DNA of 63,056 nt, the filler included, from Stramenopiles sp. TOSAG23-2 (Eukaryota), in the NCBI GenBank assembly GCA_900128395.1. It is 40 parts of 40 records of this genome, joined end to end, with 100 filler letters (N's around TTAATTAATTAA, not from the genome) between each part and the next. Parts side by side here need not be neighbours in the genome. Positions count along the whole stretch, not along the records: positions 41,343 to 42,698 come from LT653102.1; 39 more parts are not named here. One strand, given 5' to 3'. Below are positions 1,707 to 58,168 of the stretch, in pieces. Below the pieces are notes generated by a model. That model saw nothing but the letters and a program-made list of their open reading frames with translations. It was not told where the DNA came from and ran no database searches. A program made the translations under genes and the position numbers. The stretch's first letter is position 1; each line of letters starts with the position of its first letter.

Positions 1707-2428
1707 TATGGTTTTATTTGTGATTTATATGGAGTTGTAACTAGATGTACTTGATTAGTGGTGTGTGTGTGTTTGTAAGTGTGCAATAGCTGAGTGTAAA
1801 TTAAAATCGCTTAGCTATCACATTAGACAGACGACTAATATTAATAATACAAAAGGTGTGCCTTATTTTAATTCGTATTTTAATATTCATATCTTATAGA
1901 ATTTGTATTTTCGGATTTTGCATGATTTTGGACTTTTAGATCTGGACATTTGGACTTCTCATCATGTATCATCTCTTTCATCATCTATACTGTATTAGCT
2001 TGCCTTATAGGGCTGGCGTCTATCAAATGACACATCATAAATGTCCATCCAATATAATATCAGAAAAATACTCATATATCAACCTGGATTAATTGATTAT
2101 ATTTTTTATTATATTTTTACATAGCATAGGTAGATCTAGTCTAGTATGTACATGAGCTGATATTTATATGCCTATATAATATGAGTACACTAATATAAGC
2201 GGTAAAATATGTTCAGTACATTAACATATCGGAAGTATCTTAACGGATGGCATATATGCGGAAATTTATTAGAATTTGTGGATCAGCAATTTAAATTAGA
2301 AAAATGGAATAATAAAACAAACAGACTATACGAATTTTCACCCGAAGAAAGTATATATATTGAAAGTAATATATATATATATACATTCAAACAAATTCAT
2401 ACATATAGTTAACAAAAGAATAAAATAG

Positions 2429-2630
2429 TATATTAAACTTTTTACATCTCATTTTTACAAACGATAGATATACTTCATAAGAATTATTTTATATCAACTA
2501 TTACTACCACGGGAAAAAGAAAAAAATTATATATTAAACTTTTTACATCTCATTTTTACAAACGATAGATATACTTCATAAGAATTATTTTATATCAACT
2601 ATTACTACCACGGGAAAAAGAAAAAAATTA
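2429..2630. repeat. Tandem duplication, 101-bp unit x2
   Basis: Identical units start at 2429 and 2530. Confidence 0.88.
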
Positions 2631-2734
2631 AACAATTTTGAACAATAGTCTTCTAGTAAAAATTAATAAATCTTTTTACATTTTTAATAATAATAATAAT
2701 TACTATAAACAAAAAAAAAAAACACATATACAAA

Positions 2735-4234
2735 ATGACGACGTTAGTTAAAGATACGTCACCGGAAATATCCCCTGAATTCATTGAAACTATGTTTGCA
2801 AATTTAACCAATGATGTAGCATATAAAGCAGCAAGAAATGCAGTGGCAGATCATGATGTTTTGGACATCGTGAAAAATCGTGATGTTATACAAAATATGT
2901 CACATACATATTCTAATCAAATATCAAAAGAAGGTAAATGTACTTCACAAAAATCAAGTGGACGTTGTTGGATGTTTGCATTATGCAATGTTATTCGTAT
3001 TGGTATGATGAAAAAATACAAATTACCAAATGATTTTGAATTATCTCAATCGTTTCTCTTTTTCTATGATAAATTAGAACGTGGGAATTATTTCTTAACT
3101 TCAATCATTGAAACAAGAGATCAACCAACATCATCAAGATTGATTTCACATTTATGTACCGACCCGACTTGCGACGGTGGACAATTCGATATGTTGGTCA
3201 ATATAGTTGAAAAATATGGCATCGTGCCAAAGAGTGTGTATCCAGACACAAAATGTTGTGTTGCATCCAGGCGTATGAATTTATTTTTAAAAAATAAATT
3301 ACGTACATATGCATGTGAATTACGTAAACTTGCAAAATCATCAACAGATATTACAGTAGATGATTTGTTTAAGAAAAAAAATGAAATGATGGTAGAATAT
3401 CATCGTATCTTAGCAATTTTCTTTGGAAAACCACCAACAAAAAGTTTTGATTTTAAATTTCGTGATAAAGATGGAAAATTCAAAGTTTATAAAAGCTTAA
3501 CACCGATTGCATTTTATGAAAGATTTGGCAAACCATCATTCGATGTTTCCACAAATATTTCATTGATTAATGATCCACGTAATGAATATTATAAATTATA
3601 TACAGTGGAATATTTAGGGAATGTAATTGGTGGCAAAGCTGTACGTTATATCAATTTACCAATTGATGAGTTGAGAAAAGCAGCAAAACAAACCATTGAT
3701 CAAGATTTACCAGTATGGTTTGGATGTGATGTTGGAAAATCGGAAGATCGTCAAAAAGGATTACTTGATGCAAATTTATATGATTTTAAAAGTATCTTTG
3801 GCACTGGTTTTACAATGAATAAAATGGAACGTTTATTATATGGTGAAAGTTTAATGACACATGCGATGGTATTTACTGCATATGATAATTTAAATGTTGA
3901 AGATGTTGGTTTGGATGAGGAGGAGAAGGATGTTGATAATAATAAATCAGCAGACGAGAAAGACGAAGAAGAAACAAAAAAAGATGCTAGTAAAAAAAGC
4001 AAAAATGCAACTATTACAGATGGTGTTGATGCTATACGTGCATGGCGTGTTGAAAATTCATGGGGAACCGCACGTGGTGACAATGGTTATTTATGTATGA
4101 CAAATGAATGGTTTGGTGAATTTGTATATCAAGTTGTTGTTGATAAAAATTTATTAAATGAAAAGATTGTTGATGTATTGAAACAAGAACCAATTAAATT
4201 GCCGGCATGGGACCCAATGGGTGCATTAGCGTGA
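2735..4234 (+). CDS. BLMH: Bleomycin hydrolase / aminopeptidase C (peptidase C1B)
   Basis: QKSSGRCW (catalytic Cys), THAM (His), ENSWG (Asn), VWFGCDV and the canonical C-terminus WDPMGALA; acidic/Lys-rich insertion before ENSWG. Confidence 0.97.
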   Translation: MTTLVKDTSPEISPEFIETMFANLTNDVAYKAARNAVADHDVLDIVKNRDVIQNMSHTYSNQISKEGKCTSQKSSGRCWMFALCNVIRIGMMKKYKLPNDFELSQSFLFFYDKLERGNYFLTSIIETRDQPTSSRLISHLCTDPTCDGGQFDMLVNIVEKYGIVPKSVYPDTKCCVASRRMNLFLKNKLRTYACELRKLAKSSTDITVDDLFKKKNEMMVEYHRILAIFFGKPPTKSFDFKFRDKDGKFKVYKSLTPIAFYERFGKPSFDVSTNISLINDPRNEYYKLYTVEYLGNVIGGKAVRYINLPIDELRKAAKQTIDQDLPVWFGCDVGKSEDRQKGLLDANLYDFKSIFGTGFTMNKMERLLYGESLMTHAMVFTAYDNLNVEDVGLDEEEKDVDNNKSADEKDEEETKKDASKKSKNATITDGVDAIRAWRVENSWGTARGDNGYLCMTNEWFGEFVYQVVVDKNLLNEKIVDVLKQEPIKLPAWDPMGALA

Positions 4235-4691: not shown

Positions 4692-5649
4692 ATGGCATCT
4701 TTAACCACTAACCAACCACCTACAAAACGACAACGTACAACAAATGAATCCACCTTGGAAGCGTTACAACAAGAACGGGCACCACCACCAATTGAAATTG
4801 GTATATTGCTTTTACCAGCTGGATTTGAGTCTGCTTGCGGTATAATGACAAAAATATTTCTATATTTAGATATTCGATCATTATGTAATGTAAAACGATC
4901 TTCTTTAATACAGCAATGTAGAAAAGCATTTGGATCAGATGATTTTGAGCGTGTACGTAATGAAGCATTGAGTATTGATTATAAAGGTAGAAGAAGTATA
5001 GATGAGATGATACTTTCACATTCAGCGAGAAGACTTTATTTATTAATTGAAAGATATAAAAGAGAGTTTCCACGTGGTACNNNNNNNNNNNNNNNNNNNN
5101 NNNNNNNNNNNNNNNNNNNNNNNNNNNNNNNNNNNNNNNNNNNNNNNNNNNNNNNATGATGTAGAATTATTTATGAATCTTCATCCTTTTCACAACTATA
5201 TTACTAACTGTGATGTGAACGGCTACAGAGATGATGTGACATTGAAAGATATGGTGAGTCAAGTCGGTAAAGATAGTCGTGGTTTTGATTATACACCTTT
5301 AATGATAGCTGCAGGATACGAACATTTCCAAATAGTTAAATATTTGATTGAACAATGTGAAGCTGATCCTAATATTGCAGATAGTGATGAAGAGAATGCA
5401 TTACATATTGCAGCAACTGAGAACAGCACGAATACTGAGTTGATTGAATTGTTATTAGCTAATATGTCTCTTGATAGTATTAATAAGAAGTCCAGTGGGG
5501 GATCCACTCCCCTGGACTCTGCATATCATAATGAAAGTCCAATTCGCCAAGAGATCATTGCACTTTTACGTTCAAAAGGTGGAAAAGCAAATTGTCATGA
5601 TGAAAATGGTAGTGATGTAGAAGAAGGTAATGGTGATTTAAATCATTAA
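4692..5649 (+). CDS. F-box-like + ankyrin-repeat protein (one gene across the N gap)
   Basis: N-part has F-box-like IMTKIFLYLDIRSLCNV and ends KREFPRG; C-part has ankyrin repeats (YTPLMIAAGYEHFQIVKYL, NALHIAA, TPLD). The paralog at 24288-25208 carries KQEFPQGT and the same ankyrin text in one ORF. Confidence 0.75.
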
Positions 5650-7502: not shown

Positions 7503-7551
7503 TGGTTAAAATCTAAGTTATAATAATTTTACTTTCCTGTGTGTTAAATAA
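7503..7551 (+). mobile_element. GATGGTTAAA-family MITE, partial copy
   Basis: TGGTTAAAATCTAAGTTATAATAATTTTAC matches copies at 30987, 42607, 44004, 45397 and 58082. Confidence 0.75.
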
Positions 7552-12159: not shown

Positions 12160-13180
12160 ATGCAATTGAAAGAATTTGGTACGGAGGAACATGTAGATGT
12201 TGGAGAGACATATGCTAGAATGGGATGGACATGTAGTAAGATGTCTAAATATGATCTAGCAATGGAATATTGTATGAAAAGTTTAAAAATACGTTTGAAA
12301 GTATTGGATGAAGGTCATGTTGATGTTGGTGATTCGTATAATGGTATTGCAGGAGTTTATTCTGATAAAGCTGAATATGATAAAGCATTAGAATATTATA
12401 ATAAATCATTAGATATTCGTATAAATAAATTAGGCAAAGATCATACTGATGTTGCACAATCATATAATAATATAGCATTAGTTTATCAATCACAAAATAA
12501 ATATGATGAAGCATTAGAATATTATAATAAATCATTAGATATTTTTATAAATAAATTAGGTAAAGATCATACTAATGTTGCAACATCATATAATAATATA
12601 GGTGAAGTTTATCGAGCACAAAATAAATATGATAAAGCATTAGAATATTATAATAAATCATTAGATATTTATATAAATAAATTAGGTAAAATATTATAAT
12701 AAATCATTAGATATTTTTATAAATAAATTAGGTAAAGATCATACTAATGTTGCAACATCATATAATAATATAGGTGAAGTTTATCGAGCACAAAATAAAT
12801 ATGATAAAGCATTAGAATATTATAATAAATCATTAGATATTTATATAAATAAATTAGGTAAAGATCATACTGATGTTGCAACATCATATAATAATATAGC
12901 AATAGTTTATTATTCACAAAATAAATATGATGAAGCATTAGAATATTATAATAAATCATTAGATATTAAAATAAATAAATTAGGTAAAGATCATACTAGT
13001 GTTGCAACATCATATTATAACATTGGTAACTTATATGAAAATCAATCCAAATACAAAGAAGCATTAGAATGTTACAACAAGTCTTACAATATATGGAAAG
13101 ATAAATTTGGTGATGATCATCAATATACAAAATTTGCAGTACAACAAATACAAAATTGTAAGGATGCATTAGGAGTGTAA
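12160..13180 (+). CDS. 3' part of a TPR-repeat protein (42-aa kinesin-light-chain/NPHP3-type repeats), frameshifted by a 172-bp duplication
   Basis: Repeats YDKALEYYNKSLDI.INKLGKDHT.VA.SYNNI; duplicated unit 12518/12690 shifts the frame; repeats continue to TAA at 13178-13180. Confidence 0.85.
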
Positions 13181-30986: not shown

Positions 30987-31043
30987 GATGGTTAAAATCT
31001 AAGTTATAATAATTTTACACTTCTCGTGTTAAGTAATATGCTC
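30987..31043 (+). mobile_element. GATGGTTAAA-family MITE copy cut by the contig end
   Basis: Near-exact reverse complement of about 45450-45508. Confidence 0.8.
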
Positions 31044-35514: not shown

Positions 35515-35793
35515 CACGAACAAGCCGCACCCACACCTGTCCAACCACCCGTTCGACCACCTGCGATAGTATTGCCTCCTGGTGTCTTGCAACCCAACCC
35601 CAACCTGAATTCACCCGTTATACCTCCGTGGATCTCAGCACCTACACCAGCACCAGCACCTACACCAGCACCTACACCACCTACATCAGTACCAATTCAA
35701 TCTGGTATTGATTTAAAAACTATTCATATTTCCTTTGATTTGAACGTTGATCAATCTGAAATATCTAATGGAGTGCTAAAGTTTACAAACTGA
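35515..35793 (+). CDS. 3' end of a Pro-rich protein on the viral contig
   Basis: PAPTPAP repeats; stop overlaps the convergent small gene (dense, virus-like packing). Confidence 0.5.
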   Translation, partial: HEQAAPTPVQPPVRPPAIVLPPGVLQPNPNLNSPVIPPWISAPTPAPAPTPAPTPPTSVPIQSGIDLKTIHISFDLNVDQSEISNGVLKFTN

Positions 35794-35965
35794 ATCTATC
35801 TATGAAATGTTTACCTTTTGACATTCTTTTACTTGGTTTCTTTTTTCTAAATTCAAAGGTCTTGTCATTGAGTGTCTTGACTGTCCATCCGGAATGAATT
35901 GCTAAAAGAATGAAAATGTACTTTACAACATTATCTTTTATACTCTCAACTACACAGTTGTCCAT
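35783..35965 (-). CDS. Small NCLDV-type hypothetical protein
   Basis: KYIFILLAIHSGWTVKTLNDKTFEFRKK resembles the K..FI..A...GWTVK...F.KK proteins of Imitervirales, from recall; ATG at 35965. Confidence 0.6.
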   Translation of the reverse strand: MDNCVVESIKDNVVKYIFILLAIHSGWTVKTLNDKTFEFRKKKPSKRMSKGKHFIDRFSL

Positions 35966-36038
35966 ATAGTAAATTACTATAATATAATAATTTACTTTAC
36001 GCAAAAATTCATTTAAAAAAAAATGTACTTATGGTATA

Positions 36039-36871
36039 ATGAGAACAAAGAGAACAACTACAGAAAAACCAAATAAAAATATAAAAACAAAGAATATTCA
36101 TTCAGCTCTAGACCGCCATTACCAAAAACATTTGGAGGAACTAGTCAATGAACAAGGTAGCGTCAACAAGAAGAAGCAACAACTCAAGAAAAAGAAAATC
36201 GAACACAGTACTACAAATAATCGTCAAATCAAGAATAGTATTGAAAACGACATCAAAGAACTTGAAAAGGATATCACTAGCATAGAATCCGGTGACCGTA
36301 TTAACGATTACGTAATGAACGTAATAGGTATAGTTACAGAATACACAGAGATAAACTTGCAAATCAAAACTGCCTCTGAATCAGAATTAAATACACTTAT
36401 AGATCGTAAAGGCTCTCTAGTACAAGAATATCTCGAAAAAATGAATCTCAACACCAGTAGTACCTTTGATGAAACTACTATGATATGTAAGAATTGTCAT
36501 CAAGACGCATTTGATACCATGGAAGGATTTGTCATTTGTACGAATTGTGGTACCACCAAAGTAACCATCGAAACACATTCAAAAATATCCTTCAAAGAAG
36601 CTCAAGAATGCAACTATAAACCAATATTTACATATCAAAAAAGTTCACACTTTCACGACCATATGAGAGCAATTCAAGGTAAAGAAACTCACGATATCCC
36701 ACAAGAAATCATTGACAAAGTATTAAACGAAATAAACAAACTTCGTGTAACAGAAACAAAAGAACTTACATATACATATATGAGAAATATACTCAAAAAA
36801 CTTAATGAACCAAAATATTACAGATCTATCCCCAGAATCATTTACAAAATATCAGGTATGCAACCATTGTA
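36039..36871 (+). CDS. Viral late transcription factor 3 (VLTF3, poxvirus A2-like), 3' truncated
   Basis: CKNC...GFVICTNCG zinc ribbon, FTYQKSSHF...IQGKETHDIP, and RNILKKLNEPKYYRSIPRIIYKISG. Confidence 0.9.
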
Positions 36872-38430: not shown

Positions 38431-39257
38431 GAAGTAATACCAATATTAAACGTAGTTGCTACTGGCGCCTCACAAAACAATGCAACTTCTCAAATTAATA
38501 GTAATAATAATAGTAATAATAATAATAACGACCCGCCACCAATTTTAAATTATGGCATGGCAATGCAAGCACCGCCGCCATTGTTGGGAATGCAGCAGCA
38601 GCAACAACAACAAGGACCACCGCCAATTCTAGGAATGCACCGTGGAGGAGGTTTGCCACGTGGTATTGGTATGCCAATAGTAATAATAATAATAACGACC
38701 CGCCACCAATTTTAAATTATGGCATGGCAATGCAAGCACCGCCGCCATTGTTGGGAATGCAGCAGCAGCAACAACAACAAGGACCACCGCCAATTCTAGG
38801 AATGCACCGTGGAGGAGGTTTGCCACGTGGTATTGGTATGCCATCAAGAGGTAGAGGACGTGGTAGAGGACGTGGTTCAGCCGCAATGATGAAGCCAGCA
38901 TGGATGATTCAGCAAGAAAAAGAAGCAGCAATGAAGGAACAAGAAAGTGGCCAAGGTATGATCGGCAAACCACTTGAAGACAATAGCAATAGCAACGGAC
39001 CTCCACCATCTACTAACAATAACAATAATAATATGCAACAGATGAATCAATTCCAACCACCACCTATAAACCCACAAATGAATCAATTCCAACCTCCGCC
39101 ACAAATGGCTCAATTTCAGCAACAACAATACATGCCACCAATGGGAAATTTCATGCAACAACCTCCGCCACAAATGCCAATGTATGGAATGTATCAACAA
39201 CCGGTACCAATGAATACTAAGAAATATGCACCAGATGTTAGTGATTGGGGAGATTAG
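38431..39257 (+). CDS. 3' part of a Pro/Gln/Met-rich low-complexity protein with RG repeats, interrupted by a 167-bp duplication
   Basis: Removing one copy of the 38509/38676 duplication gives one continuous frame from the contig start. Confidence 0.7.
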
Positions 39258-40560: not shown

Positions 40561-40899
40561 CTGGAGATAAGATATAATGAACATGTTTTGTCAAATTGTA
40601 TACAAAATCTGAAATAAATAACATTAATTTGTGGTAATGAATCAGTTATAAAATTCTTTTATGATGATGAAATATTTGAAAATACTGAAGATTTGCATAA
40701 AACCACTGCAAGAATTTTCAAACAATGTTCAAAAGATCCAAAAAAAATTGGTGGATCAATAAATGTAGATATTATATATATATTTATTATGCATAAATTA
40801 AATTATATTTTTTTTAACAAGATGTGGTGTGTACACCAGTACAGGTACATTTGAGATTTGAGGCAGTGATAGACAAACTTCCCTTTGAATAATTTGTAC

Positions 40900-41190
40900 T
40901 TAAATATTAGATAGTAAAATGACCCTTTCTTAGCATACTAATATTTATACTTATGGAATAAAATCCCAAATAGCAAGCACACAGCAGCACCGGTGCACTT
41001 TGGGCTATTAGTGAAATTAGGGGACATATTGGGATATATTATATTTAAATATTAGATAGTAAAATGACCCTTTCTTAGCATACTAATATTTATACTTATG
41101 GAATAAAATCCCAAATAGCAAGCACACAGCAGCACCGGTGCACTTTGGGCTATTAGTGAAATTAGGGGACATATTGGGATATATTATATA
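40900..41190. repeat. Tandem duplication, ~145-bp unit x2
   Basis: Near-identical units start at 40900 and 41045. Confidence 0.85.
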
Positions 41191-41342
41191 TATTGAAAAG
41201 TTAAGAATGCATCTCTTGGCACGCACACATTTTTTTACACAANNNNNNNNNNNNNNNNNNNNNNNNNNNNNNNNNNNNNNNNNNNNTTAATTAATTAANN
41301 NNNNNNNNNNNNNNNNNNNNNNNNNNNNNNNNNNNNNNNNNN

Positions 41343-42578
41343 AGCAGAAGACGTCATACGAGAAATGCAACAACTGCAAGTAAATATAATTTAAAAGATC
41401 AACAAACTGTTGCGGTGAAAGTAAACTCGCCAAGAAATACTACAACATTTTGTGATATGTACGTGAAAGTTCAAAGTGGAAACGAAAATGGAGATGATTC
41501 GATACAAGTATATTTAGATACAGATGAAACTGGGTCTTGTGTCCTAGTGGATGCGGTTAGTTATGATTTATATACTCAAAGTTATGATGGAAATAATATG
41601 ATTCAACTGACACATGTATTGCGTACTGATGCAGGCGTTGCACCAGTACGTCAAGATCGTGTATGGAGTGTTGAAGAAGTTGATAGAGAATTTAAACAAA
41701 CTTTTCCAGTAAGAACTTTTCCAATTGGCAATACAAAAGGATCGCAGAAAACATATCCTATTGCCGATGACAATGCGGATTCTTTTGGTTTACAAACTTT
41801 AGTTAGCAACAAACATATACATGTTTCACCTGAAGACTTATATGCAATGTTTGGAGATGGGCATCGTTTGACACCTATGAAACCAATTGGTGGTGGGATG
41901 CCAATGATGTTGGCTCGGTTTTTTGGTTTTGCTAGTAAAGAAAAATTAACTATACGCAATATTGAAACTGGACAAGAATTAAATAATGTGACCATTCTTG
42001 GGCCACCACGTGTTCGTACGCAAATTGAATTAGCATATTCTGATTTAGTAGATGTAGGTTTACAAAATGATACACCAACTCGTATTAGTGGTGATAACCT
42101 TTCATCTGGAAAATGTATTTTAATACCGCATAACGATGATGGTTCGTTAAATGAAGAAGGTGCTATTAATTTAAAACAAGGTGCTGTGAGGGCATGGCGT
42201 CATATTCATTATGCTGGTAAAGCTGCACAGGGTGGAGATTTTATGACGGTATGTGTAGAAAGTGAGCATTGTACAACAATGTTTCATGATATATTAGTGC
42301 GAGTTGGACAAGATAAACGTGATGCAAATGCCCCAGATCCGAATCCACCATTTTGGATGAAGGCAGCAAAATATGCAGCTTTATCTATTTTTATGCCAGT
42401 TTTCCTAATGATGGGTGGAAGTATTGGCTTTAACAGTAATATGATTCATGTAGATACAGATGAAGGAAATGCTTGTAATATTGGACAAGCAAAAGGTTTT
42501 ACATTGTACAATCAAGATTTAAAAAGTGGTGAATTGAAATTTATTGGTAGTACGAAAAATAGTATGGCCAAAATGTAA
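41343..42578 (+). CDS. pduL: PduL-type phosphotransacylase, tandem domains, 5' truncated
   Basis: SNKHIHVSPEDLYAMFG.GH.L, VTILGPPRVRTQIELA.SD, P.RISGD, GAVRAWRHIH, FHDILVRV and MIHVDTDEGNA; frame is open from 41343. Confidence 0.88.
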   Translation, partial: SRRRHTRNATTASKYNLKDQQTVAVKVNSPRNTTTFCDMYVKVQSGNENGDDSIQVYLDTDETGSCVLVDAVSYDLYTQSYDGNNMIQLTHVLRTDAGVAPVRQDRVWSVEEVDREFKQTFPVRTFPIGNTKGSQKTYPIADDNADSFGLQTLVSNKHIHVSPEDLYAMFGDGHRLTPMKPIGGGMPMMLARFFGFASKEKLTIRNIETGQELNNVTILGPPRVRTQIELAYSDLVDVGLQNDTPTRISGDNLSSGKCILIPHNDDGSLNEEGAINLKQGAVRAWRHIHYAGKAAQGGDFMTVCVESEHCTTMFHDILVRVGQDKRDANAPDPNPPFWMKAAKYAALSIFMPVFLMMGGSIGFNSNMIHVDTDEGNACNIGQAKGFTLYNQDLKSGELKFIGSTKNSMAKM

Positions 42579-42606
42579 TATAATTATAGTACCTGTACTA
42601 TAATAA

Positions 42607-42672
42607 ATGGTTAAAATCTAAGTTATAAAAGTTATAATAATTTTACTTCTTATTCTCGTGTTAAATAATATG
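42607..42672 (+). mobile_element. GATGGTTAAA-family MITE, partial copy
   Basis: ATGGTTAAAATCTAAGTTATA...ATAATTTTACTTC...CTCGTGTTAAATAATATG. Confidence 0.75.
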
Positions 42673-42798
42673 GGCAAGCCCGGCAAGCGGAACGAAATNN
42701 NNNNNNNNNNNNNNNNNNNNNNNNNNNNNNNNNNNNNNNNNNTTAATTAATTAANNNNNNNNNNNNNNNNNNNNNNNNNNNNNNNNNNNNNNNNNNNN

Positions 42799-45225: not shown

Positions 45226-45396
45226 AACCAAATATGATCAGGTTTAAAACAAAAGATGGAAGGAAATGGAATAAAGTCAATAAAAAAGGCATATAACATA
45301 AACGTTTTAAACGTGGACCTACGTTGTAAAACCAAATATGATCAGGGTATCATATATATGCATATCATACAAACTGGCAAACAAATTTATGCATAT

Positions 45397-45517
45397 TATA
45401 ATAATGATGGTTAAATAGCATGTATTAAATTCTTGCGATTGAGTATTTTGAGCATATTACTTAACACACGAGAAGTGTAAAATTATTATAACTTAGATTT
45501 TAACCATCATTATTATA
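45397..45517. mobile_element. Full-length ~120-bp MITE (GATGGTTAAA family)
   Basis: Perfect 19-bp inverted repeat TATAATAATGATGGTTAAA (45397-45415) / TTTAACCATCATTATTATA (45499-45517); internal sequence shared with the other copies. Confidence 0.78.
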
Positions 45518-58081: not shown

Positions 58082-58168
58082 GATGGTTAAAATCTAAGTT
58101 ATAATAATTTTACTTCCCGTGCTAACCAGCTAAGTAATAGGCTCAATACTCAATCTCAAGAATAATAT
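58082..58168 (+). mobile_element. GATGGTTAAA-family MITE, diverged copy
   Basis: GATGGTTAAAATCTAAGTTATAATAATTTTAC...GCTCAATACTCAATCTCAAGAAT aligns to the reverse complement of about 45428-45508. Confidence 0.75.

Follow-up and report, generated by a model that had tools for sequence, protein, structure and literature searches.

A truncated gene for a tandem PduL protein, probably of marine protist origin, in the Stramenopiles sp. TOSAG23-2 assembly

The phosphotransacylase PduL (family PF06130, PTAC/PduL) has, to our knowledge, been treated so far as a bacterial enzyme, mostly tied to microcompartments. In the planctomycete Bremerella cremea (L023, the sole planctomycete locus examined here for gene context), for instance, the gene order is DeoR regulator, PduL, two BMC-H, acetate kinase, EutN and aldehyde dehydrogenase, an arrangement for which we take "PVM-type" to be the name. 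Acetyl-phosphate metabolism in eukaryotes is discussed by way of Pta, acetate kinase and phosphoketolase. The available excerpts of one report (PMC4784909) place Pta in some eukaryotes and mention eukaryotes for Pta only. The present analysis concerns a PduL gene located at positions 41343-42578 of a 63,056-base stretch of DNA (the window, positions 1-63056), which joins 40 pieces of the assembly of Stramenopiles sp. TOSAG23-2 (GCA_900128395.1). The reaction predicted for its product is that of Pta (PF01515), a protein unrelated to it in fold and family. We consider it probable that this gene belongs to the nuclear genome of a marine protist, uncultured and AT-rich, that its 3' four-fifths lie on the contig, and that it encodes a tandem of a PduL pseudo-enzyme and a live PduL, of bacterial descent.

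The gene and its parts are laid out as follows, with the basis of each assignment in brackets.

41343..42578, plus strand: 5'-truncated PduL open reading frame (protein P0001), 411 codons and the TAA, corresponding to residues 110-520 in the full-length protein P0002 (translation, homology)
42576..42578, plus strand: stop codon TAA (translation)
41343..41597, plus strand: C-terminal remnant of a degenerate N-terminal PduL copy, with RRH-T for the live RHIH and YLDTDE for the live HVDTDE (custom profile)
41763..42518, plus strand: intact C-terminal PduL domain with six metal ligands, H267, H269, E338, H396, H398 and H478 in P0002 numbering (Pfam, alignment, model)
42312..42437, plus strand: 42-residue insert (P0002 residues 433-474) just before ligand H478, with the hydrophobic stretch WMKAAKYAALSIFMPVFLMMGGSIGF (alignment, model)

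The open reading frame (ORF) runs without interruption through its 411 codons to the TAA, and the motifs SNKHIH, TQIE, WRHIH and HVDTDEGNA, all of which had been reported as intact in the original prediction, are present in its translation. The assignment to PduL made there is likewise borne out by the match of the window ORF to PF06130 (E 7.9e-31, 107.6 bits, against a cut-off of 25), which becomes stronger in the full-length P0002 (E 4.7e-42, 144.2 bits, same cut-off), and the Pfam scan of the window ORF yielded no PF01515 match. What had escaped that prediction is that the window holds only part of the gene, which is 109 codons short, and that the encoded protein is a tandem in which a dead PduL copy precedes a live one. 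Of 2,136 candidates in a homology search with the window protein, 86 reached E <= 1e-3. The closest of them is P0002, a protein of 520 residues (98% identical, cluster of 45 members), and further relatives include P0003 (533 residues, 71% identical) and P0005 (514 residues, 39% identical); bacterial PduLs, which have about 240 residues, align at 27-36% identity across the C-terminal 41-70% of the window protein. Residue i of the window protein corresponds to residue i+109 of P0002, and hence 109 codons have been lost at the contig edge. The first 25 or so bases of the ORF deviate both from the DNA contig of run X2 and from L001, a 3,795-base metagenomic contig that carries the whole PduL gene at 99% identity between AT-rich flanks, and they look like a contig-end error. 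A GTG at 41415 was rejected as a start codon, because the frame continues upstream without a stop as far as the contig edge, the full-length relatives beginning 109 codons earlier, and an antisense ORF at 41651-42199 was taken as a shadow of the PduL frame.

The C-terminal half of the protein has a PduL fold and a full two-metal active site, and it follows a ligand-poor copy of the same domain in one polypeptide. Both halves of P0002 match one and the same planctomycete PduL, residues 259-498 at 33% identity (E 3e-32) and residues 20-193 at 26% identity (E 6e-14). A custom hidden Markov model (HMM), built from 77 single-domain PduLs, also recognizes the N-terminal half, with E values of 1.1e-12 in P0002 and up to 6.2e-30 in its relative P0112, and it still matches residues 8-79 of the truncated window protein P0001 (E 2e-6). 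According to the available excerpts of PMC4784909, the first zinc of R. palustris PduL is bound by His48, His50 and Glu109, and the second by His157, His159 and His204. In our alignment (A1) these six positions coincide with the invariant columns H267, H269, E338, H396, H398 and H478 of the C-terminal half, in which R332, Q336, S358 and R395 are invariant as well. The corresponding positions of the N-terminal half read H-I-I, S, H-A-T and Y, so that four of the six ligands are lost and two are kept; among the N-terminal halves of the relatives, the degeneration differs from one to another.

The same division is apparent at the structural level. The sequence of the C-terminal half can be aligned with that of the solved structure 5CUO (E 1.6e-8), and the AlphaFold model of the 520-residue P0002, computed from a 50-row alignment, reaches a predicted local distance difference test (pLDDT) of 88.3 and a predicted template-modelling score (pTM) of 0.89, values from which a definite packing of the two halves against each other is predicted. 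Superposed on 5cuo_A, residues 256-498 of the model give a Z score of 17.9 and a root-mean-square deviation of 2.1 Å over 181 of 188 residues, and Foldseek links the predicted model to the same chain (E 6.6e-15, TM score 0.82). The C-terminal half is therefore alike in fold to the microcompartment PduL of R. palustris (5CUO/5CUP), with which it has in common the six ligands and the motifs SxxHxH, TQxE, RHxH and HxDTDE. Nonetheless, identity to PduLs of this class is about 29-33%, and the protein differs from them in its tandem arrangement with a ligand-poor N-terminal copy, in two inserts, one of them hydrophobic, and in its start inside the first strand, with no encapsulation peptide ahead of it.

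The larger insert, of 42 residues, contains the hydrophobic stretch of about 22 residues, for which the model shows a helix (P0002 residues 446-465) at low confidence (pLDDT 65-74). This insert is absent in planctomycete PduLs, whereas its position is kept in all double-domain relatives and in the single-domain P0006 and P0007. The second insert, 8 residues following the PMKP motif, also distinguishes the protein from planctomycete PduLs. A search of the model for an N-terminal encapsulation peptide was negative, since P0002 starts directly in a strand (residues 2-6, pLDDT 97) with no extension, and the protein would on this account probably be cytosolic.

Two further observations concern the junction between the halves. 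The linker VWSVEEVDREFKQ (P0002 residues 216-228 approximately, window positions 41661-41699 approximately) aligns with the N-terminal region of planctomycete PduLs; R224 is invariant in it and E220 nearly so, and the alignment suggests that it may be a relic of the encapsulation (targeting) helix. In P0107 (416 residues, from the cluster of P0004), an unrelated hydrophobic N-terminus is joined to PduL at the linker, there SVEEVDREFKQ, and this protein represents either a chimeric contig or a variant devoid of the dead N-terminal half.

To place the gene among its relatives, prokaryotes were searched with one genome per species, covering 185,579 species. Relatives were encoded by 576 stretches, the best 80 of which were analyzed; these showed 27-36% identity over lengths of 465-717 bases, which means that the best 80 prokaryotic relatives are all single-domain proteins. 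Neither the double-domain architecture nor an identity above 36% was found in this search, and the claim that the gene does not come from a contaminating bacterium holds for every species sampled. A search of the ESM Atlas with P0002 gave no usable match. An exhaustive HMMER search of 1.84 billion representatives returned 585 proteins at E <= 1e-3, 62 at E <= 1e-10 and 8 at E <= 1e-30. P0003, P0108, P0109, P0110, P0112, P0113, P0117 and P0120 have the double-domain architecture, some of these sequences being partial, and the double-domain proteins fall into eight clusters at 50% identity, three of which have EukProt members. Some are encoded in AT-poor sequence and have Ala/Gly-rich linkers, so that the family occurs in organisms that differ widely in base composition.

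The phylogeny, which the original prediction had proposed as a check, sets both halves of the window-type proteins, together with four single-domain relatives, apart from the sampled bacterial PduLs. In a FastTree phylogeny of 191 domain rows, seven N-terminal halves, seven C-terminal halves and P0006, P0007, P0114 and P0116 are separated from the other 173 rows with a support of 97, and the N-terminal and C-terminal halves are grouped at 96 and 89, respectively. The same 18 rows separate from 52 others (SH-aLRT 98.6) in an IQ-TREE phylogeny of 70 rows, which included 26 hand-picked loci and 26 random representatives and from which three long-branch rows were left out. This pattern fits a single origin followed by tandem duplication within the lineage. 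The four single-domain proteins, all metagenomic, thus belong to one clade with both halves of the double proteins; they have one domain (220-321 residues) instead of two, and P0006 and P0007 carry a long C-terminal tail and have both inserts at the positions seen in the double proteins. Judging from the eight double-domain clusters, three of them with EukProt members, the gene is no recent private acquisition. As to its source, the 77 prokaryotic full-domain rows comprise 71 from Planctomycetota, three from Verrucomicrobiota, one from Lentisphaerota, one from Pseudomonadota and one unlabelled. Microcompartment PduLs of planctomycetes and Verrucomicrobia, such as that of B. cremea, are hence the most similar prokaryotic sequences and have the conserved core in common with the window protein; the B. 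cremea gene lies in a microcompartment cluster beside acetate kinase, whereas the window-type gene stands apart from any such cluster in the 3.8 kb of L001. Because the trees are unrooted and the midpoint root falls inside the clade, the planctomycetes are to be regarded as the most similar bacteria and not as a demonstrated donor.

A mechanism can be postulated from these features. The PduL-derived N-terminal half, having lost four of its six zinc ligands, would act as a pseudo-enzyme packed on the live half in the manner of the second subunit of a PduL dimer, and the linker would join it to a catalytically competent C-terminal half. The latter is predicted to interconvert a short acyl-CoA plus phosphate and the acyl-phosphate plus CoA at its two-metal site, and would do so outside any microcompartment. 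The lineage would descend from a bacterial PduL, the most similar forms being planctomycete and verrucomicrobial, and the tandem duplication would have followed the split from the bacterial forms, being now common to several eukaryote-like lineages. The partner enzyme would be acetate kinase or phosphoketolase. The hydrophobic insert beside H478 may attach the enzyme to a membrane or reshape the acyl pocket; given that both ends of the insert belong to one domain, it does not form a single membrane span and would be at most a surface-docking element. Only as a tentative extension do we propose that these proteins constitute a eukaryote-specific branch of PduL, acquired from a planctomycete-like source, freed from the shell, converted into an intramolecular dimer of a dead and a live domain and provided with a helix that docks on a membrane or gates the substrate. 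In place of Pta, such an enzyme would form the acetyl-phosphate/acetyl-CoA link in several abundant uncultured marine protists, with acetate kinase for substrate-level ATP synthesis in low oxygen or with phosphoketolase for a carbon-saving breakdown of sugars.

The gene most likely stems from an AT-rich, uncultured marine eukaryote (a protist), and the evidence comes from several directions. The PduL stretch is contained in 20 of the 24 runs listed, which belong to 14 studies and are nearly all marine or seawater metagenomes. Six of the runs with the stretch are RNA runs, four of them from poly-A or oligo-dT libraries. Contigs of the oligo-dT run X16 span positions 41599-42625, and the poly-A run X19 is represented by contigs over four stretches between 41486 and 42460; identity to the window is 95-100% for nearly all of them, the X16 piece that enters the 3' untranslated region (UTR) being 90-95% identical. 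EukProt gene models occur in three clusters, those of P0002 (g5511.t1), P0003 (g8124.t1) and P0108 (g1305.t1 and g16071.t1). In one of them (g8124.t1, P0102, 716 residues), an SRR1 domain (PF07985, E 3.2e-16) runs directly into the start of PduL, and this merged model places an SRR1 gene, a eukaryotic family, immediately upstream of PduL in that relative. The original prediction had noted that the codon style matches that of neighbouring host genes. The match itself stands, since the ORF has a GC content at third codon positions (GC3) of 0.185 and its relative synonymous codon usage correlates at 0.90 with that of the other window ORFs, one of the highest values in the set of 32 (three of the 32, namely c13623, GNAT and Cadherin, are out of frame and to be disregarded, so that the mean is slightly contaminated); the neighbourhood does not, the window being a concatenation in which the gene has no neighbours.

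The genomic context of the gene elsewhere is also eukaryote-like. The locus L002 has about 870 AT-rich bases upstream of PduL, where the longest stop-to-stop frame has 123 codons and no family support. On L001, the convergent neighbour of PduL (1982-3673, minus strand) encodes a divergent, lineage-restricted DHH/DHHA2-like protein of 563 residues with a long low-complexity insert rich in K, E, R and N, and its nearest neighbours in feature space are eukaryotic DHH/DHHA2 exopolyphosphatase clusters, which serves as a lead only. No shell genes (PF00936, PF03319) were found in the 3.8 kb of L001 or in the 1 kb of L002.

Downstream of the stop codon, the contig ends in a dispersed repeat of the miniature inverted-repeat transposable element (MITE) kind, of which the window holds the following copies.

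42607..42698, plus strand: MITE-like dispersed repeat, ended by the contig edge, with an internal duplication of 9 bases that sets it off from the other copies (repeat comparison)
45396..45510, minus strand: fullest other copy, about 100 bases, with 10-base terminal inverted repeats GATGGTTAAA...TTTAACCATC (alignment printout)
30989..31018, plus strand: exact 30-mer core, on a contig encoding a MORN-repeat protein (30-mer search)
7503..7532, plus strand: exact 30-mer core, on another contig (30-mer search)
58084..58113, plus strand: exact 30-mer core, on another contig (30-mer search)

The repeat begins about 30 bases past the stop codon, as originally claimed, and makes up the final 93 or so bases of the PduL contig. 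Five other pieces of the window align with the 3' flank of PduL, at 76-87% identity across 38-79 bases (E 1.6e-9 to 9.9e-6), and the 30-mer core of the repeat, TGGTTAAAATCTAAGTTATAATAATTTTAC, recurs in four exact copies on other pieces, against none expected from 100 shuffles. Two of these four exact copies lie on contigs for an RRM protein and for the MORN-repeat protein, the one at 45396-45510 being some 170-285 bases downstream of the RRM-protein ORF. The copies lie in AT-rich regions downstream of ORFs, and more of them are found, in other contexts, among X2 and X13 contigs; the 30-mer core was not found in any of 82 loci searched. Terminal inverted repeats are visible in the minus-strand copy only, the PduL copy being cut by the contig end, and it is their 10-base ends that make the label "MITE-like" a fair one.

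A number of points weigh against the attribution to a protist genome, several of them bearing on the junction between the ORF and this repeat. The X2 DNA contig (1,538 bases, 11 differences) ends at 42582, 4 bases past the stop codon. The X16 RNA contig joins the ORF to a 3' UTR with 14 gapped letters and tracks the repeat to 42625, that is, over its first 19 bases, before diverging. After the stop codon L001 shares only the 12-mer TGGTTAAAATCT, with an alignment score (57.5) inside the range of shuffles (mean 44.7, maximum 58.5), and among the independent contigs of four runs none spans the ORF and the whole repeat. X13 contigs show the repeat alone despite a word share of 0.72 in the index, the contig records being filtered. 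The junction hence rests mainly on this assembly; strains may differ in whether they carry the repeat, or the contig may end in a repeat collapsed during assembly. For the proposal that the MITE ties the contig to the eukaryotic genome, the occurrence of the repeat on contigs for RRM and MORN proteins is indirect evidence, and the junction is only partly backed by independent assemblies. Beyond the junction, the PduL gene has no intron and consequently offers no splice evidence, contigs from RNA libraries may derive from carried-over DNA and are no proof of transcription or polyadenylation, and EukProt proteomes can contain contaminants. The L001 neighbour matches Pfam DHH at E 0.013, below the cut-off, and has only four relatives at E <= 1e-5, one of them annotated as a pyrophosphatase/exopolyphosphatase. 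Finally, the presence in the window of a gene for a VLTF3-like factor and of a contig with a GC3 of 0.51 implies that the assembly is not purely one genome.

The VLTF3-like factor (contig 35515-36871, PF04947, E 3.6e-16) raises the question of whether PduL lies outside the core host genome, as part of a giant virus (Nucleocytoviricota) or of viral DNA inserted into the protist. An intronless, AT-rich gene that is common in marine metagenomes would suit such an origin, and so would its occurrence in poly-A libraries, into which viral transcripts would also enter, giant-virus mRNAs being polyadenylated; viral codon use, moreover, can resemble that of the host. Yet the scan of 2.9 million IMG/VR contigs yielded no relative with P0002 and, with alignment A1, a single match, which is single-domain and 33% identical. 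PduL goes with the host-like ORFs in codon use, unlike the VLTF3 ORF (GC3 0.28, correlation of 0.63 to the other window ORFs), the repeat is common to RRM- and MORN-encoding contigs, the SRR1 gene abuts PduL in a relative, and the 870 or so non-coding bases upstream in L002 are long for a virus, so that we deem a viral gene improbable. Still less credible is a contig of an unsampled AT-rich bacterium, whether contaminant or symbiont of the protist, with the terminal repeat as an assembly chimera. PduL is otherwise a bacterial family, to be sure, the contig has only 1.36 kb and ends within the repeat, and the X2 contig stops just past the ORF; but identities above 36% and the double architecture are both absent from the one genome searched for each of 185,579 prokaryotic species, the long AT-rich non-coding flanks of L001 and L002 and the K/E-rich low-complexity neighbour are unlike bacterial gene packing, the sequence recurs in oligo-dT and poly-A libraries and in three clusters with EukProt members, and the X16 RNA contig joins the ORF to the first 19 bases of the repeat.

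Granted a genuine protist gene, it is also conceivable, if rather unlikely, that its product is no soluble acetyl or propionyl phosphotransacylase feeding acetate kinase, and that the insert and the dead N-terminal half have retargeted it. Such a variant could act at a membrane site, use longer or other acyl groups, or serve mainly as a CoA/acyl-phosphate buffer or sensor. In its favour are the conserved position of the hydrophobic insert before H478 across the double-domain relatives and P0006/P0007 and its absence from planctomycete PduLs, the low-confidence helix modelled for it, and the second insert after PMKP. Retention of all six ligands and of the invariant R332, Q336, S358 and R395, superposition of the modelled core on 5CUO at 2.1 Å and the placement of the insert inside one domain, which would prevent it from crossing a membrane once, speak against such a variant.

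The gene is real, and the main idea of the original prediction largely holds, with weaker, indirect evidence taking the place of its linkage argument. It is best seen as a familiar enzyme family in a new architecture and in a domain of life where it was not expected. The view that a eukaryotic PduL had not been described agrees with the full-text literature searched, in which none was found; supplements and subscription journals lie outside that literature, and a mention in a table of gene transfers is possible. Two apparent mentions of a eukaryotic PduL were rejected: in the available excerpt of PMC12700378 "Pdul" stands for Pandoravirus dulcis, and in that of PMC10579272 the PduL belongs to a bacterial symbiont of Pelomyxa. 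Were the protist reading to hold, a conserved and apparently expressed double PduL in widespread marine protists would introduce a second, unrelated phosphotransacylase into eukaryotic energy metabolism. It would also show cleanly how an enzyme of microcompartments can be put to new use when the shell is gone, and would provide a natural fusion of pseudo-enzyme and enzyme in which to ask why PduL works as a dimer.

The structure of the window itself calls for some comment. It is divided into 40 pieces by 39 identical linkers of 100 bases (44 N + TTAATTAATTAA + 44 N), whose central sequence we take to be a six-frame stop spacer. The first piece has 6,207 bases and includes a 75-N gap at 5081-5155, and the later ones are ordered by falling length, from 1,363 to 1,352 bases. 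The linkers and this order indicate that the window consists of unplaced contigs sorted by size and joined, and is no stretch of a chromosome; the genes "next to" PduL are therefore no true neighbours, and any synteny across linkers is artificial. As a practical warning, windows concatenated from unplaced contigs give unrelated genes the look of neighbours. The PduL contig is bounded as follows.

41243..41342, no strand: artificial linker (44 N + TTAATTAATTAA + 44 N) upstream of the PduL contig, bordering an unrelated contig (linker scan)
41343..42698, plus strand: PduL contig, 1,356 bases, GC content 0.35 (linker-bounded piece)
42699..42798, no strand: artificial linker downstream of the PduL contig (linker scan)

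Other pieces of the window encode proteins of eukaryotic type, among them bleomycin hydrolase, TRM13, a RAP-domain protein, pseudouridine synthase and PhyH, identified with Pfam, and RCC1-, MORN- and ankyrin-like proteins, recognized by eye without a family scan. The named relatives of the bleomycin hydrolase, from stramenopiles, rhizarians, fungi, animals and two bacterial metagenome-assembled genomes, reach only 42-47% identity. The ORF for the VLTF3-like protein (35991-36869, plus strand), a late transcription factor of the poxvirus/giant-virus type, includes a TFIIB-like zinc ribbon, and its contig could be viral DNA or a viral insertion present in the assembly. The contig at 16546-17906 has a GC content of 0.42, and its ORF, which encodes a membrane protein with leucine-rich repeats, has the GC3 of 0.51 cited above and correlates at 0.27 in codon use, unlike the other ORFs; the piece may derive from a different organism or hold an unusual gene.

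Several tandem repeats were also observed in the window. A perfect 167-base tandem duplication (38509-38842, copies 100% identical) extends into the start of a Q/N/P-rich ORF (38724-39257) and may be genuine or a product of misassembly. The contig placed before that of PduL holds, in its non-coding part, a 145-base unit twice in tandem (40884-41173, 96% identical). An ORF that fills its contig (55910-57247) and belongs to no Pfam family has 39/78-base tandem repeats that encode TTLNDYVLTTALNTTLADYSTTASIN-like units, and a series of 126-base (42-residue) TPR-like repeats (KSLDI.INKLGKDHT.VATSYNNI...) occupies positions 12160-13115.

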